A DNA stretch of 29,231 nucleotides, from the NCBI GenBank assembly GCA_963826525.1, contig CAWGXH010000007.1:1-29231 (forward strand), written 5' to 3'. Numbering within the stretch: position 1 is the stretch's first letter; each line of letters opens with the position of its first letter. Below the pieces are notes generated by a model. It worked only from the letters and a program-made list of their open reading frames with translations. It made no database searches and was not told where the DNA came from. The stretch is from an uncultured Methanomicrobiaceae archaeon. Lineage in GTDB: Archaea > Halobacteriota > Methanomicrobia > Methanomicrobiales > Methanoculleaceae. A program made the position numbers and the translations under genes. Positions 5,376 to 16,478 of the stretch are shown here, piece after piece.

Positions 5376-6702
5376 TGCATCATCTCCCGCACGCTTTCCG
5401 CCTCAACAGCGATGCCGGTGAACAGGCGGAACTGCGCTGCGGCCTGGTGGACGAACATCTCGGTGCCGGGGATCGTCTCGCAGCCGATAGCCCGTGCCTC
5501 CCGGATGAGCTTCGTCTCGGGGGGCGTGTAGACGAGGTCGAAGACGGTCATCCCCCGCTCGAGCAGGTCCGCCGGAAGAGGGCTCCCCCAGCATCTTCCA
5601 TCCCGACCGGGGTCGTGTTGACGACAACGTCGGTATCGAGTCCCTCGAACTCGTCGAGCCCCCCCCATGCGCACCCGAACCGCTCCGCAAGGAGGCGGGC
5701 TTCGAGGGTCCGGTTCAGCACGGTCACCTCCATATCGAGGTCGCGGAGCGCGTAGACGGTCGCCGCCGCCGCACCTCCCGCACCGAGCACGACCGCCCTC
5801 GCTCCCCGCCGGTGCTCGAGCGGCGTCTTCACGCCGAGCCAGTCGGTGTTGAACCCGTGCATCCTTCCGCCGCACTGGACGACCGTGTTGACCGCCCCGA
5901 TGGCGGCCGCGTCCGCGTCGACCTCGTCCAGGAACGGTATGATATCCTGCTTGAACGGAATGGTGACGGAGAGCCCTCTGACGTCGAGGTCGCGTGCGAG
6001 CCTGACGATGGGTTCTATCGCGGGCCACTCGAACCGCGTGTAATAGTAGGGTAAGCCGTAGTGCTCAAAGAGCCTATTGTAGAGGGCGGGGCTTTTGCTA
6101 TGCGAGCAGGGGTTGCCGGCGATGCCGCAGATCCGGGTGAGCGGGTCGCGCTTTCGCACCGCCATAAGGTCGTCCGGGGCAAGGGAGCTTTCAGGCAGCG
6201 CCGGTGCCGCGGAGAGGACGGTTACGATCCGCTCGACGGTCTCCTCGACGCTGGACGCGCCGGTATCGATGCAGACGTCGGCGCTTGAGAGGTAGGCAAG
6301 CCTCCTCTTCCCGAGAACCTCCCGTATCTCATCCCGAAGCGGGAGCGACGTGAGCCCCGGCCGGTCGCTGCCCCGGATACGCTCCTCGATGACCGCAGGA
6401 TCGGCCGTCAGCAGAACGATCGTTCCGTTCCGGCGGAGCGTCTCCACGTTCGCCGGGTCGGTGACCGCTCCCCCGCCGGTGCTGATGACGCCGTCATATT
6501 CCCGGAGCGACGCGATAACCTCCCTCTCGAGACGCCGGAACGCCGCTTCGCCCTACCGCTCGAAGATCGCCGGGATGGCGATCCCCGCCTTCTCCTCGAT
6601 TACAGCGTCGGTATCGACGAACGGAAGGCCGAGGCGGTCGGCAAGCCGCCGCCCGACGGCCGTCTTCCCGGTGCCCCGATACCCAGTCAGGACGATCTTC
6701 AT
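5372..6702 (-). CDS. aroE: Shikimate kinase (P-loop AroK type) fused to shikimate dehydrogenase (AroE); frameshifted
   Basis: N-terminal [17 protein letters not shown]; the kinase C-half and the AroE N-half (HSKSP, SVTIPFK, IGAVNT, NTD, GAGGAA) share one reading frame (5548-6447); C-terminal [16 protein letters not shown]. Confidence 0.9.
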
Positions 6703-9581: not shown

Positions 9582-10568
9582 TCACTTCTCAAGGATCGTC
9601 TCCTTCACCGCTATGCCGAAGTGGCGGCCGCCCTCCGTCGCAGCCCCGAGGATCCGGTCGCCCTCTTTGAGGTCGACGACCGAGATCGCACCGCCGTCCT
9701 CGCCCACGAGGCGTATCGTCTCCGCGTTCTGGAGGATCAGGCTGACCCGGGCGTCGCCGGCCTTTGCCTCGACGAGGAGGAGCGGCCGGCGTTCAATCTT
9801 CACCCTTCCGACCACCGCGTCGGTCGTCCTGCCGCCGCGTTCCGCGACCGCGACGTGATCCCCGACCTTCAGGTCGGCGAGGTACGCCGTCTTCCCGCCG
9901 GGGAGCATGATGTAGGCATGGACGGCACCGGCATTGACCCGGAACGGCCGGGGCGCCACGTAGGGGTTCTCGAGCGTCTCCGGGTGCACGAGCAGGAAGG
10001 CGGAGGAGGTGTTGCCGACGAGCATCCCCTGCCCGTCCGCGAGGAGCGAACAGGTATCGACGCAGACCCTATCGCCCATCCCGACCGGCCGGATGCCGGT
10101 GACGGTGAAGGGAATGAGATCGGTGCTCCCGCCGGAGGATGCGATCAGCGATGCGACCTCACGGACGACGGCCGGATCGCCGGTCTTCAGCAGGATCCCG
10201 GCAATGCCGCGCTCAAGGACGGTCAGCGCGAGTTCCGCCTCCGCACGGTTCGTCACCGCCGCGACGATACGGTCCGAGGCTGCAACCAGATTCTCGAGCG
10301 GGATCACCGTCCAGTCGCCGGTGCTGACGATCACGAATCCCTTTCGTGAAAGCCTGACCGCCTCTTCTTCGCTCTCCTTGTCCACGATCGCCACCTCGAA
10401 GACATCCTCGCCGGGGACAAGATCCCCGTCGGGCGCGATGGCCGTCGTCCGTGCGAGTTCGCGGAGGTCTTCCGCACGGTCGACCATCAGAGCATCCGCA
10501 CCGCTCTCGATGGCGGTCGTGGCGAGATCTTTATCCCACGGCCTGAGATCGACCCAGAAGACCTTCAT
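9582..10568 (-). CDS. aroB': 3-dehydroquinate synthase II (archaeal AroB')
   Basis: DWTVIPLENL, GDRVCVDTCS, RPFRVNAGAVH, VGRVKIERRPL, QNAETIRL, GRHFG. Confidence 0.95.
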   Translation of the reverse strand: MKVFWVDLRPWDKDLATTAIESGADALMVDRAEDLRELARTTAIAPDGDLVPGEDVFEVAIVDKESEEEAVRLSRKGFVIVSTGDWTVIPLENLVAASDRIVAAVTNRAEAELALTVLERGIAGILLKTGDPAVVREVASLIASSGGSTDLIPFTVTGIRPVGMGDRVCVDTCSLLADGQGMLVGNTSSAFLLVHPETLENPYVAPRPFRVNAGAVHAYIMLPGGKTAYLADLKVGDHVAVAERGGRTTDAVVGRVKIERRPLLLVEAKAGDARVSLILQNAETIRLVGEDGGAISVVDLKEGDRILGAATEGGRHFGIAVKETILEK

Positions 10569-11359
10569 CCTTCCATCTCCAGCGCCCAGGCAGGGTCGAT
10601 TTCGTCATGCACCACCCGGCAGATCGCCCGGATGAACTGGCGCGGGTTATCGCGCTGGAACGCGTTCCTGCCCATGCAGACACCGGCGGATCCGGCCGCC
10701 ACGGCCTCCCCGAGGGTCGTCAGCGTCTCGATATCGCCGCCCTTCTCGCCGCCCGCGACCATCACGGGGACCGAGCATGCTTCGGTGATCCGGCGGAACG
10801 ATGCCGCATCCCCGGTGTAGTTCGTCTTGATCAGGTCGGCGCCGAGTTCTTCGGCCACCCGGACGCAGTGCCCGATCGCCTTCGGGGACGTGGGATCGAT
10901 CCCTTCGCCGCGGGGGTAGATCATGATAAGGAGCGGCATTCCCCAGCGGTTGCACTCTTTCGAGACCTGCCCCGCCGACTCAATCATCCTTGATTCGTTC
11001 GGCGCCCCGAGATTGATATGGATCGAGACCGCATCCGCACCGAGGGCGACCGCCTCCTCGACGGTGCAGACGAGCACTTTGTCGTTCGGGTCGGGGTTCA
11101 TCGAGGTGCTCGCCGAGAGATGGACGATGAGCCCGATATCCCGTCCGTGCTTCCGGTGGCCGCCCTTCACCATCCCCTTATGGAGGACGATGGCATTCGC
11201 ACCCGCTTCGCTGACCTCGGAGACGATCTCCGTCATGTTGCGGAGCCCCTCGATCTGCCCGAGCGTGAACCCGTGATCCATGGGGATGATCACCGATCTG
11301 CCCGTATTCCGGTTCATGATTCGTTCAAGACGTATCTCTTTTCCTATCATCTCTCTCAC
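10565..11359 (-). CDS. 2-amino-3,7-dideoxy-D-threo-hept-6-ulosonate (ADH) synthase / DhnA-type class I aldolase, copy 2
   Basis: PMDHG, HLSAST, GADAVSIHIN, YPRG, ELGADLIKT (Schiff-base Lys), GRNAFQ; start at 11359 or 11350. Confidence 0.9.
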   Translation of the reverse strand: MREMIGKEIRLERIMNRNTGRSVIIPMDHGFTLGQIEGLRNMTEIVSEVSEAGANAIVLHKGMVKGGHRKHGRDIGLIVHLSASTSMNPDPNDKVLVCTVEEAVALGADAVSIHINLGAPNESRMIESAGQVSKECNRWGMPLLIMIYPRGEGIDPTSPKAIGHCVRVAEELGADLIKTNYTGDAASFRRITEACSVPVMVAGGEKGGDIETLTTLGEAVAAGSAGVCMGRNAFQRDNPRQFIRAICRVVHDEIDPAWALEMEG

Positions 11360-12146
11360 GCCCTCAGGATCTCAATTGCTTCGTCTGCCGGTTTTCCTTC
11401 GTGTACAATGAGCGCCGCGGCCCGCATCAGTTTCTCCGGAGCGGGGTGCTGGAACGCATTCCTCCCGATGGAGATGCCGGCAGCGCCGCCCTCCATCGCC
11501 CCCTCGATCAGTTCGAGGATGGCCATATCGTCGGTCTTCGACCCGCCGGCGACGACCACCGGAACCGGGCACCCCCGCGTGACCTCGCGGAAACTGTCGG
11601 GGTCGCCGGTGTAGACGGTCTTGACGATATCGGCGCCGAGCTCCGCCGCCACCCGGGCGGCGAGTTTGACGTGTTCGACGTCGTGCTCGTCCGCGATCTT
11701 CTGCCCCGGGGGTACATCATCGCAAGCAGCGGCATCCCCCACTCCATGCACTCGATCGCCACCCGGCCGAGGTCTTCGAGCATCTTGGCCTCCGAGTTCG
11801 CACCGACATTGATATGCACCGAGACGCCGTCCGCCCCCATCTTGAGGGCGTTCGTGACGGTATTGACGAGCACCTTCTCGTTCGGGTCGGGTCCGACGGC
11901 GGTGCTCGCCGAGAGGTGGAGGATGAGCCCGACATCTCTGCCGTGCCGCCGGTGACCATGCAGGGCAAGCCCCATATGCCCGATCACCACGTTTGCTCCG
12001 CCCCCCGCCACGAGGTCGATGGTCTTTCCGAGGTCAATCAGTCCCGGGATTGGCCCGACCGTAACACCGTGATCCATCGGTACGATGATGGTCTTTCCGG
12101 TATTACAATCCATGATACGTTCCATGCGAATTTCTTTTCCTCTCAT
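11356..12146 (-). CDS. ADH synthase / DhnA-type class I aldolase, copy 1 (frameshift near 11710)
   Basis: [27 protein letters not shown] / [15 protein letters not shown]; SD-like GAGGAG 8 nt before the ATG. Confidence 0.9.
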
Positions 12147-12247
12147 AGTCAGATACTCCTCATCCGGCACGTCAGCGATTCTGGTGGAGAATCAGCTTCA
12201 GTTCCGGGGATAATAGTTAAAGGTGCTAAAAAAGCGGAGATAATTGC

Positions 12248-12285
12248 AAAAAGGCAGGCACCATCCGGTAATGGAATGAACCTGC
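12248..12285 (-). terminator. Candidate attenuator terminator in the aro operon leader: hairpin plus U5 tract
   Basis: Minus strand GCAGG-UUCAUU-CCAU-UACCGG-AUGG-UG-CCUGC-C-UUUUU; a second U6 tract follows at 12228-12233. Confidence 0.5.
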
Positions 12286-12330
12286 GGAAGAAGTGCGTCG
12301 CTTTGACCTGCACGGCGGATGGATCCTTCG

Positions 12331-12366
12331 CTACCAGTGATAAAAGCATTCACCGGCAAAAAACAT
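12331..12366 (-). CDS. Putative aromatic leader peptide MFFAGECFYHW
   Basis: ATG TTT TTT GCC GGT GAA TGC TTT TAT CAC TGG TAG read by hand; 5 of 11 codons are Phe/Tyr/Trp; lies upstream of the aromatic biosynthesis operon. Confidence 0.6.
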   Translation of the reverse strand: MFFAGECFYHW

Positions 12367-12375
12367 TCACCACGC

Positions 12376-12409
12376 ATTGATAGTATCATATTTCGTCAAT
12401 CTATAAAAA
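12376..12409 (-). promoter_or_regulatory. Putative TATA box of the aro operon with adjacent palindromes
   Basis: TTTTTATA on the minus strand at 12409-12402 predicts a start site near 12378; palindrome TGATAgTATCA at 12378-12388; ATTGA-N15-TCAAT at 12376-12400. Confidence 0.5.
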
Positions 12410-12511
12410 GGTAAGCCCGCAGGATGAGAATTGGCGAGGGGAGAAGGGACACGACCCGGCAGATATCGACGCTACTCTATTATTTCCGGAAAAGAACGCT
12501 GCTTCTGCCGA

Positions 12512-13008
12512 TCACTTCCGGATCTTCTTAAAGGAGATGACATCGCCGACGGTCGTCGCCATTCTGCCGGCGCCGCGGGACTCGGTCTCGTCGGCCGCGG
12601 AGTCGATCAGCTTGATGCCGAGCGCCCGCTCGATCTTTTTCCGGACAGCGTCTTCCGGAATGAGATCGCCCTTCTCGATCTTCTTGATCAGGATCTCACG
12701 CTCTTTCGTCGCATGCGCAAGATCCAGCGTCGACCATTCCTTCTCTTCCCGGGCAGCGCGAATCCGTTCGCGGTAGTCGTCGACGATATCGCCCTCGATC
12801 AGGTCAAAGACATCCCGCGGCCTCCTCCGGGCTGCGGCGTCGAGGCCGCCGGTGCTCCGGGCTTCCGCACAGGAACGCCGCCTCGCCGTGATTGCTGGAC
12901 TTCCTTACCGTATTTTGCACATTTGATGCACACACAGAGTTCTGCACCTTCAACCTGGACTGTCTTAGACGGTCCGTGGATAGGAGCGCCGCATAATTCA
13001 CATTGCAT
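12512..13008 (-). CDS. Archaeal multiprotein bridging factor aMBF1 (Zn ribbon plus HTH); frameshift near 12820
   Basis: MQCELCG..VCIKCAKYG; second frame DIVDDYRERIRAAREEKEWSTLDLAHA..IKKIEKGDLIPE..TTVGDVISFKKIRK*; divergent from pan. Confidence 0.9.
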
Positions 13009-13065: not shown

Positions 13066-14302
13066 ATGGGAGATATTGCTCGGCAAGCACCTGACAAGGA
13101 TACCGGTGAAGATCTTTACCAGTACCTGCTTGAACGGATAACTAACCTCGAAAACCGAAATCTGGGCTGCGGGAGCAGTTCCGGCAGATGGAATCTGAAA
13201 AACGCTATATCGAAACCCAGAAGATCCGGTACAAGCGTGAGCTCCGGAAGCTCAAGAGCGAGATCGAACAACTGCGGAGCCCTCCTCTCGTTATCGGGAC
13301 GGTCACCGACGTCGTTGACAACAACCGGGTCATCGTGCGGAGCAGCGCTGGTCCACGATTCCTCGTCCGCACATCGCAACTCATCGATCCCGATCTCCTC
13401 AAGCCGGGTGTGCGGTGTACCTTAAACCAGCAGTCTCTCGCCATCGTCGACGTCCTCCCCACGAGTTACGACTCGCAGGTCTACGGTATGGAGCTGATCG
13501 AGTCCCCTGACGAGCGCTACGAGAATATCGGCGGCCTTGAGCCGCAGATCGTGGAGATCCAGGAAGCGGTCGAGCTCCCGCTGACAAAGCCCCATCTCTT
13601 CGAGCAGATCGGCATCTCGCCGCCGAAGGGCGTCCTCCTCTACGGCCCGCCCGGAACCGGGAAGACGCTGCTCGCGCGGGCGGTCGCGCACCAGACGAAC
13701 GCGCACTTCCTCCGTGTCGTCGGTTCGGAGCTCGTGCAGAAGTACATCGGCGAGGGGCGCGGCTCGTGCGCGAACTCTTCGAGCTTGCCAAACAGAAAGC
13801 GCCGTCGATCATCTTCATCGACGAGATCGATGCGATCGGTGCGCACCGGAACGATTCGACGACCTCGGGAGACCGCGAGGTGCAGCGGACGCTCATGCAG
13901 CTCCTCGCCGAGATGGACGGGTTCGAGAACCGCGGCGACGTCAAGATCATCGGCGCCACGAACCGGATCGATATCCTGGATCGCGCCCTCCTCCGGCCGG
14001 GTCGGTTCGACCGGATCATCGAGATTCCGCTCCCCGACTTCCACGGACGGCTGTCAATCATGAAGATCCACACGAAGGGCATGAACCTCGGCGGAAACGT
14101 CGACCTTGCGGAGGTCGCCCGCCTCACCGAAGGAAAGAACGGTGCCGACCTTCGGGCGGTCTGCATGGAAGCGGATATGCTCGCGATCCGGAGCGAGCAC
14201 GAGACCGTCACGCAGGACGACTTCATGAAGGCGATCGACAAACTCGCGCTCGACTTCGACAAGCACCATATCAACTCCTCATATGGCGCGATGTTCGCCT
14301 GA
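13066..14302 (+). CDS. pan: Proteasome-activating nucleotidase, copy 1 (frameshifts near 13165 and 13760)
   Basis: N-terminal coiled coil, [48 protein letters not shown]; ends MFA*; T-tract follows at about 14313-14319. Confidence 0.95.

Positions 14303-15311: not shown

Positions 15312-16478
<1,167 letters not shown>

Follow-up and report, generated by a model that had tools for sequence, protein, structure and literature searches.

Introduction

In the enterobacterial pheL-pheA, pheM-pheST and trpL systems, a leader peptide rich in codons for the end product makes the ribosome the sensor, with terminator and antiterminator hairpins as the switch and a bacterial intrinsic terminator as its output. 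The archaeal leader described here shares with them a peptide rich in product codons ahead of the pathway genes; whereas pheL and trpL switch by hairpins, the folds of this leader reveal no such switch, and its hairpin abuts or contains the Shine-Dalgarno (SD) sequence. Within the Archaea, the trpY leader of Methanothermobacter carries a Met-Trp minigene, which is likewise a short ORF in the leader of an amino acid gene, but is unlike the present element in sequence and layout.

Programmed +1 frameshift sites are known from prfB, which encodes release factor 2, and from Ty1 and antizyme. The present leader resembles such sites in several ways: a short ORF in frame 0 soon meets a stop while the +1 frame continues, the P-site YUU can re-pair one base on, the next codon is read slowly (here by prediction), and a purine-rich stretch just upstream is complementary to the 3' end of 16S rRNA. 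In prfB, however, the slow codon is a stop, whereas here it is proposed to be a sense codon for Phe or Tyr under starvation, and the site is duplicated. The product of the cassette described below would, moreover, be a leader peptide and not an enzyme.

A further parallel comes from mycobacteria, in which leaderless Cys-rich short ORFs are reported to act by translational attenuation (Canestrari et al., bioRxiv 10.1101/834739). The likeness lies in a leaderless short ORF with product codons at the head of a biosynthetic operon; the mycobacterial polycysteine ORFs are bacterial, sense Cys and occupy one frame, whereas the element here is archaeal, has Phe, Tyr and Trp codons, spans 41-98 codons and mostly involves two frames (10.1101/834739). 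Recoding in Archaea has been suggested for the magnesium chelatase of Methanocaldococcus and Methanococcus (frameshifting) and for the haloarchaeal virus HSTV-2 (a +1 frameshift), according to a 2021 review of archaeal recoding (PMC8211752), and the archaeal fucA1 gene is given as a -1 frameshift case in another report (PMC1616953). Neither attenuation nor leader peptides are mentioned in the 2021 review (PMC8211752), and none of the top-ranked full-text literature matches was a published case of ribosome-sensed leader-peptide control of an archaeal amino acid operon.

Results

The leader precedes an aro operon, and its copy in the window is damaged

The window, i.e. the whole 29,231-nt stretch of DNA that was analyzed, is an entire contig (C7). 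Two other contigs of the assembly match it at 90-91% identity, namely the small contig C6 and, over part of its length, the large contig C5. Altogether, the assembly holds three versions of the region at 86-97% identity, with window positions 1-29231 corresponding to G000 C5:181270-210607 and to C6. C6 and C7 do not look like separate loci, but like duplicates of one region that were poorly polished. The sequence-only reading of this DNA had suspected that base-count errors are common in the assembly, and this was borne out: relative to C5, the window carries 82 one-base indels within 14.8 kb of gene-dense DNA, and several genes (aldolase, EPSP synthase and PAN) are frameshifted.

The first operon gene encodes an aldolase of the ADH synthase family (11356..12146, minus strand, as are all leader features below; assigned with NCBIfam) and carries a frameshift in the window. 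Next come a second ADH synthase gene and the genes for DHQ synthase II, prephenate dehydrogenase, prephenate dehydratase and EPSP synthase (family matches NF005556/TIGR01949, NF002627, NF008400, NF008865 and TIGR01356), so that tyrA, pheA and common-pathway genes are held in one operon. The leader extends ~230 nt upstream of the aldolase ATG at 12146.

The sequence-only reading had described a 12-codon ORF, MFFAGECFYHW*, between the TATA box and the first operon gene, and this frame is present as written (12331..12366), with its ATG, the second in the leader, at 12366-12364, a T6 run at 12363-12358 and TAG at 12333-12331. It is created by a 1-nt deletion. C5, C6 and a congener genome (G001) each have an additional C directly behind the T6 run, and the intact copies read ATG CGT GGT GAA TGT TTT TTC GCC GGT GAA TGC TTT TAT CAC TGG TAG, i.e. 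MRGECFFAGECFYHW*. An earlier proposal that one extra T would join the frame to the ATG at 12377 was therefore right about the join, which C5, C6 and G001 contain, but wrong about the base, which is a C after the run and not a T. Because the window contig is error-ridden and the three other copies carry the extra C, the 12-codon form is best read as an assembly artefact, in which C7 would have lost one base after T6. In intact copies, the ATG at 12366 falls in the third frame and opens just 5 codons to a TGA, as read off the C5 sequence.

A 15-codon mini-ORF begins at the predicted transcription start

For comparison, we assembled the regions upstream of the orthologous aldolase gene from 41 related genomes, together with named records and five further genomes. 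The leader promoter of the window has a TATA box (TTTTTATA, 12402..12409, identified from sequence) 24 nt from the ATG at 12377. Across the set, a TATA-like hexamer ends 22-27 nt before the corresponding ATG in 61 of 63 leaders (24 nt in 36), a spread that is biased narrow since the hexamer nearest 23 nt was picked. Given this spacing, the mini-ORF lies at the predicted transcription start, and on the basis of the TATA distance we place that start at the ATG at 12377 or 1 nt before it. The leaderless ATG itself (12375..12377, frame 0) is invariant in the 51 leaders with the two-frame arrangement described below (the shift class) and in 11 leaders with a single, in-frame ORF. A leaderless ORF from this ATG near the predicted start site had been anticipated, and a mini-ORF is indeed kept there across the order.

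In intact copies, the frame-0 mini-ORF has 15 codons (MRGECFFAGECFYHW*, 12331..12377), and the deletion in the window falls between 12358 and 12357. A frame-0 stop follows the second unit of the cassette (unit B, below) within 3 sense codons in 48 of 51 leaders, representing 22 of 25 distinct sequence contexts, whereas a comparably near stop in frame +2 is found in 17/51. These near stops come as TAG, TAA or TGA, and by eye many of them are created by a U at the third position of varied +1-frame codons. The invariant ATG and the near stop in 48/51 leaders suggest, at the level of sequence, that frame 0 is used. Counts of silent and replacing variants in the two-frame overlap (10/32 versus 9/32) favour neither frame, and both lie near a chance level of ~25%, which is an estimate and not a computed value.

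The mini-ORF had been described as rich in Phe, Tyr and Trp codons. What holds across the relatives is an invariant Phe codon (UUY, 51/51) and a near-invariant Tyr codon (UAY, 50/51); the richness does not, and some copies, e.g. MRGGCLFAPGCLYRA and MQDECHSIHEGLFARECLYL, have one Phe and one Tyr only. The ending FYHW, with its Trp codon, is limited to the window copy and to C5, C6, L002 and L038.

Among the genomes sampled, a duplicated cassette is confined to the Methanomicrobiales

The mini-ORF is built from two similar units. Unit A (12355..12371) consists of GGTGA, 4 nt and TTT TT(C), includes the T6 run at 12363-12358 and forms the Phe site, with YTT-TTY in 51/51 leaders; unit B (12337..12354) consists of GGTGA, 4 nt and TTT TAT (12345-12340) and forms the Tyr site, with YTT-TAY in 50/51. 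The 18-nt unit consensus is thus [GC][GA]UG[AG], 4 nt, YUU, and then UUY in unit A (51/51) or UAY in unit B (50/51). The GGUGA element is complementary to the 3' end of 16S rRNA, GGATCACCTCCT (GGAUCACCUCCU). At both sites (51/51 and 50/51), YUU is followed by U, so a P-site tRNA can re-pair one base further on.

A profile of the 47-nt block containing both units matched 51 distinct leaders in addition to the window copy, and matched no locus of L058-L120, which are from bacteria and other archaeal orders (best E 0.65). A two-unit core pattern was found in 57 of 401 genomes sampled from the phylum, all of them in the window's order, and in 0 of 333 genomes outside it; the reversed control pattern gave 0 matches in the 401 genomes. 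By family, the core pattern was present in 14/14 (f1), 26/28 (f5), 4/9 (f6), 2/3 (f2), 6/6 (f3) and 4/7 (f4) genomes. Chance cannot account for such an element. Its position is always upstream of the first gene of the aro operon, and it occurs once per genome, except in the window's assembly, where the redundant intact contigs C5 and C6 each match. Named records (Methanoculleus, Methanolinea, Methanoregula, Methanospirillum and Methanomicrobium) put the group in Methanomicrobiales. In the window's own genome, no further block or single-unit copies were found beyond the three redundant contigs, and a regulon or operator reading found no support there.

The +1 frame is long, open and ends in an aromatic tail

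The conservation of reading frames suggests that the mini-ORF is only half of a larger, two-frame leader gene. The long leader ORF (12198..12377) occupies the +1 frame in intact copies, with 58 codons from GTG in C5; in the window the deletion fuses it to the ATG at 12377, giving 59 codons plus a stop within a 63-aa ORF (12198..12389). Each of the 51 distinct leaders has a +1 frame that runs without a stop from the leader 5' end for 43-98 codons. Between unit B and the stop of the aromatic tail, it contains no stop in 51/51 leaders, whereas frame 0 has at least one in 51/51 and frame +2 in 45/51, even though the stretch between unit B and the tail varies greatly in length and sequence.

The last 16 codons form the aromatic tail (CNYLRFFSTFNYYPRN, 12201..12248), which ends at a TGA (12200-12198). 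The sequence-only reading took the mini-ORF for the aromatic-rich peptide and missed this one; the peptide that is truly rich in aromatic residues is the overlapping +1 ORF with its tail at 12248-12201. Over 58 leaders, Phe, Tyr and Trp codons make up 436 of the 928 codons in the last 16 positions (47%), compared with 6.5% in the genome's long open frames, and Trp is present in 38/58 tails. Examples are AFYRYFSQFTRYFTWF, RYHRYFGYFWYFY and AYFGYFSYFGYFA, and the C5 tail is CSYFRFFSTFSYYPRN. Codon choice is also skewed. While the genome's long frames prefer TTC and TAC, the tails use mostly the rarer TTT (76% of Phe codons versus 26.5%) and TAT (92% of Tyr codons versus 32%), and they show a three-base periodicity of TAT TTT GGN repeats. 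The T-rich tract, which could be taken for a terminator, is aromatic-rich when read in the +1 frame.

A protein search with the window's fused 59-aa frame returned no candidate. With the +1 frame of a relative, it returned 5 clusters, all from JGI, of which four are called 'hypothetical protein' and one is unnamed; the JGI calls start the frame at GTG in 4 of the 5 and at an upstream ATG in the fifth. Genome annotation thus misses such leader genes apart from these 5 protein clusters. In one Methanoculleus-like JGI sequence (P0005), an extra ATG lies 5 nt upstream of the usual ATG and belongs to the +1 frame (MQCVVNVF...), so that translation could begin in the long frame at once, provided that this ATG is transcribed.

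Leaders without the cassette keep the aromatic ORF

The conserved block is absent from 11 leaders (L026, L028, L036, L054, L056, L057 and L123-L127), which include those of Methanospirillum hungatei and Methanomicrobium mobile. In each of the 11, a leaderless ATG is directly in frame with an equivalent aromatic tail and is the only plausible start of the aromatic ORF. A TATA-like hexamer stands 23-26 nt upstream in 10 of the 11, and the pattern missed that of L057. Because the ATG in these leaders is in frame with the tail, the aromatic ORF starting at the 5' ATG is the common denominator of the order.

Three of the in-frame leaders, compared by eye and without scoring, look like joined versions of the two frames. 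In L124, MCGEC is followed by PTVIDS, which corresponds to residues of the +1 frame in L037; in L125, MCDGC is followed by LPAERGIAAS, which corresponds to VFLPVNAFITGS in the +1 frame of L038; and L123 follows the same pattern with MQG and then STCIN. L124 and L125 thus resemble frame-0 codons 1-5 (codons 1-3 in L123) followed by the +1 residues of their relatives, and the U-run is gone.

In L036, L124, L125 and L126 (genera g16 and g19), the leader stop is succeeded by a long conserved hairpin, CUGCACC.GA ... GGUGCAG. From this hairpin it is another 100-220 nt of A/U-rich sequence to the start of the gene, and at that distance the hairpin cannot mask the SD.

The leader RNA is predicted to fold around the mini-ORF and after the leader stop

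Two structural features recur in predicted folds of the leader. The first is a helix, P1, formed between the leader 5' end (12376-12368) and a 3' strand at 12308..12318, with the mini-ORF enclosed between them. Compensated pair types occur at P1 positions 4, 5, 6, 8 and 9, and in 8 of 8 representatives it is P1 that closes the minimum-energy fold, with z ranging from -0.4 to -3.8. Support from a swap test was modest, the native duplex being better in 36/51 leaders. MAFFT followed by RNAalifold on 41 leaders recovered only a local hairpin that does not vary (6 pairs, none of them changed on both sides), the 3' strand of P1 being misaligned; P1 was assessed by duplex searches and single folds instead.

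The second feature is a hairpin directly after the leader stop codon (12174..12197, by folding). Its first paired base lies no more than 12 nt from the first base of the leader stop in 55 of the 56 leaders folded. The SD-like GAGGAG of the first operon gene (12156..12161; gene ATG at 12146-12144) has 50% or more of its bases paired in 38 of 53 minimum-energy folds, with sequences that differ between lineages. In the window's genus, the SD is unpaired in the minimum-energy fold, which counts against masking of the ribosome-binding site there. Also, 8 of 58 leaders, including four from family f4, have 80-219 nt between their stop and the gene, which likewise counts against this reading.

The sequence-only reading had likened the locus to trpL/pheL-type attenuators. 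When the first 33 or 55 nt of 14 leaders were masked in folding, the downstream hairpins underwent no consistent switch, and the terminator/antiterminator alternation of that parallel did not appear.

Discussion

A probable leader-peptide attenuator acting on translation

We propose that the element is the 5' end of a conserved, leaderless, two-frame leader of the aro operon, and that this leader probably works as a leader-peptide attenuator that acts on translation. Its anatomy fits translation control better than a trpL/pheL-type switch. By this proposal, ribosomes would linger on the tail codons when aromatic aminoacyl-tRNAs are scarce and would cover the 5' strand of the hairpin, and a ribosome stalled on the tail would free the ribosome-binding site, or otherwise prevent the hairpin, allowing the operon to be translated. 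When these aminoacyl-tRNAs are plentiful, the ribosome would leave, the hairpin would re-form and expression would drop. The two-frame cassette would gate access to the aromatic tail, and P1 may close the leader once the first ribosome has passed. In the folding model, P1 and the local hairpins would also hinder leaderless initiation, a point that counts against this reading.

How ribosomes would reach the tail is a separate matter, on which we are more tentative. The route we favour, at somewhat less than an even chance, is that ribosomes from the 5' ATG slip +1 on YUU-U before a starved UUY (Phe) or UAY (Tyr) codon and so enter the long frame. With Phe-tRNA and Tyr-tRNA both plentiful, translation would terminate after 15 codons, and with either of them scarce, a +1 slip would occur; the slipped ribosome would then travel ~150 nt to the tail, where a second stall would open the hairpin before the aro operon. 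The duplicated, prfB-like +1 cassette would thereby serve as an amino acid gauge, and the leader would be a two-stage, ribosome-only sensor in Archaea, a suggestion that we advance with the same reserve. Evidence for the slip consists of the YUU-UUY and YUU-UAY sites (51/51 and 50/51) and, by eye, the colinearity of the in-frame orthologues with the trans-frame product. The GGUGA-to-slip spacing, at 4 nt, is longer than that of prfB and counts against it. Two other routes between the frames were discarded: a -1 slip on U UUU UUC leads immediately to UGA, and transcriptional slippage is at odds with several lineages having just four T.

The main alternative keeps the same attenuator and dispenses with the frameshift. 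The long frame would start at the GUG or AUG of unit A, 7 nt from the 5' end (25 nt in three-unit forms), and the ATG mini-ORF would be a separate, overlapping uORF. This codon also speaks against the slip, being start-codon-like in its conservation: positions 2-4 of unit A are RTG in 51/51 leaders, read in the +1 frame as GUG in 47 and AUG in 4, and in the 401-genome pattern search 7 of the 8 one-mismatch hits are a G-to-A change that creates AUG at this position. The JGI gene callers, as noted, also begin at GTG in 4 of 5 clusters. On the other hand, no SD precedes the RUG and the 5'-terminal ATG lies in front of it; a ribosome stalled on the Phe codons of the mini-ORF would cover the RUG just when more leader translation is needed; and the in-frame orthologues retain the frame-0 N-terminus MCGE(C) and not a GUG start. 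Taken together, we consider a separate start rather unlikely.

Classical transcription attenuation, in which the T-rich tail DNA would be an archaeal oligo-T terminator and ribosome position would set read-through, seems improbable. It is true that 56 of 58 leaders contain a run of at least 4 T within the final 60 nt of the long ORF, and many minimum-energy folds place hairpins before the tail. These runs, however, lie inside the tail and follow from its TTT and TAT codons anyway, a T5 run is missing from half of the leaders (at least 5 T in 28/58), and the 5'-masked folds gave no consistent hairpin switch.

Could the long frame encode an independent small protein (41-98 aa) that ends in an aromatic C-terminus, has a separate function and is merely co-transcribed with the operon? 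A conserved, VFSPVNAFI-like N-terminal motif and a YR[YF]F core in the tail would suit such a protein. Its middle is highly variable in length and sequence, though, and the tail preserves composition only; Pfam and NCBIfam contain no family for the long-frame peptide; and it is always linked to the aro operon, with no second occurrence in the genome. We regard this as very unlikely. Slightly less credible still is a structured RNA, riboswitch-like or a protein- or tRNA-binding site, in which the reading frames are incidental. The P1-closed 5' domain in 8/8 folds, the compensated pairs in P1 and the constancy of GTGA at the nucleotide level, even where the frame-0 residue changes, are what such an RNA would show. 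Nevertheless, Rfam gave 0 matches at the gathering score in the whole window and 0 even at E <=10 in 12100-12560, and an RNA structure alone leaves unexplained the open +1 frame in 51/51 leaders, the periodicity of the tail and the in-frame orthologues without the cassette. A tRNA scan found nothing, and a Box C/D or K-turn reading of GGUGA...CUGA was set aside since, by eye, CUGA is not conserved.

A repressor-bound DNA operator, made of the two direct GGTGA repeats 18 bp apart that overlap the predicted start site, is scarcely credible in view of the RNA-level compensation in P1, the reading-frame signals of the leader, the single site per genome and a spacing that is off helical phase. The T-rich tract might also contain a second promoter, but since it codes in frame, this is less likely.

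Among described systems, translational attenuation like that of the mycobacterial leaderless Cys-rich short ORFs would be, by analogy, the most economical reading. The leader offers an order-wide, sequence-defined candidate with natural controls, since some lineages have the two-frame cassette and others lack it. Should the frameshift step prove true, it would represent a new use of recoding, in which a 'hungry' +1 shift at a sense codon acts as a metabolic sensor, and would provide a clean system for leaderless initiation and reading-frame maintenance in archaea.

Genes around the leader

A gene for aMBF1 lies just upstream of the leader on the same strand (~12512-13000, minus strand; intact copy L121:2-484, TIGR00270, 156 bits). 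It is found upstream of the leader in 32 of 57 loci, many of the others being too short to tell, and is absent from L023-L026, L028 and L030. In yeast, Mbf1 is reported to prevent frameshifting at stalled ribosomes (PMC6301793), which makes aMBF1 an intriguing gene to find next to what may be a frameshift sensor. In one metatranscriptome run, 12% of the words searched were present, and its contigs, 90-95% alike, cover the aMBF1 and aldolase genes of a relative and not the leader.

Two tandem paralogues of the ADH-synthase-family aldolase (10565-12146, minus strand), ~55-60% identical to each other, head the operon in all relatives, and the product of one of them may be the DKFP precursor instead of ADH. 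The ORF that follows the EPSP synthase gene (~6553-6700, minus strand) ends, by eye, in a peptide resembling bacterial-type (AroK) shikimate kinase and not the archaeal GHMP type. On the plus strand, a proteasome-activating AAA ATPase-like gene, named by eye (13188-14302), is split over two frames (13188..14063 and 13766..14302), likely by another assembly frameshift. Finally, the window contains an inverted pair of ~490 bp with 79% identity (13546-14037 and 15567-16058), perhaps two diverged AAA ATPase paralogues that face each other.
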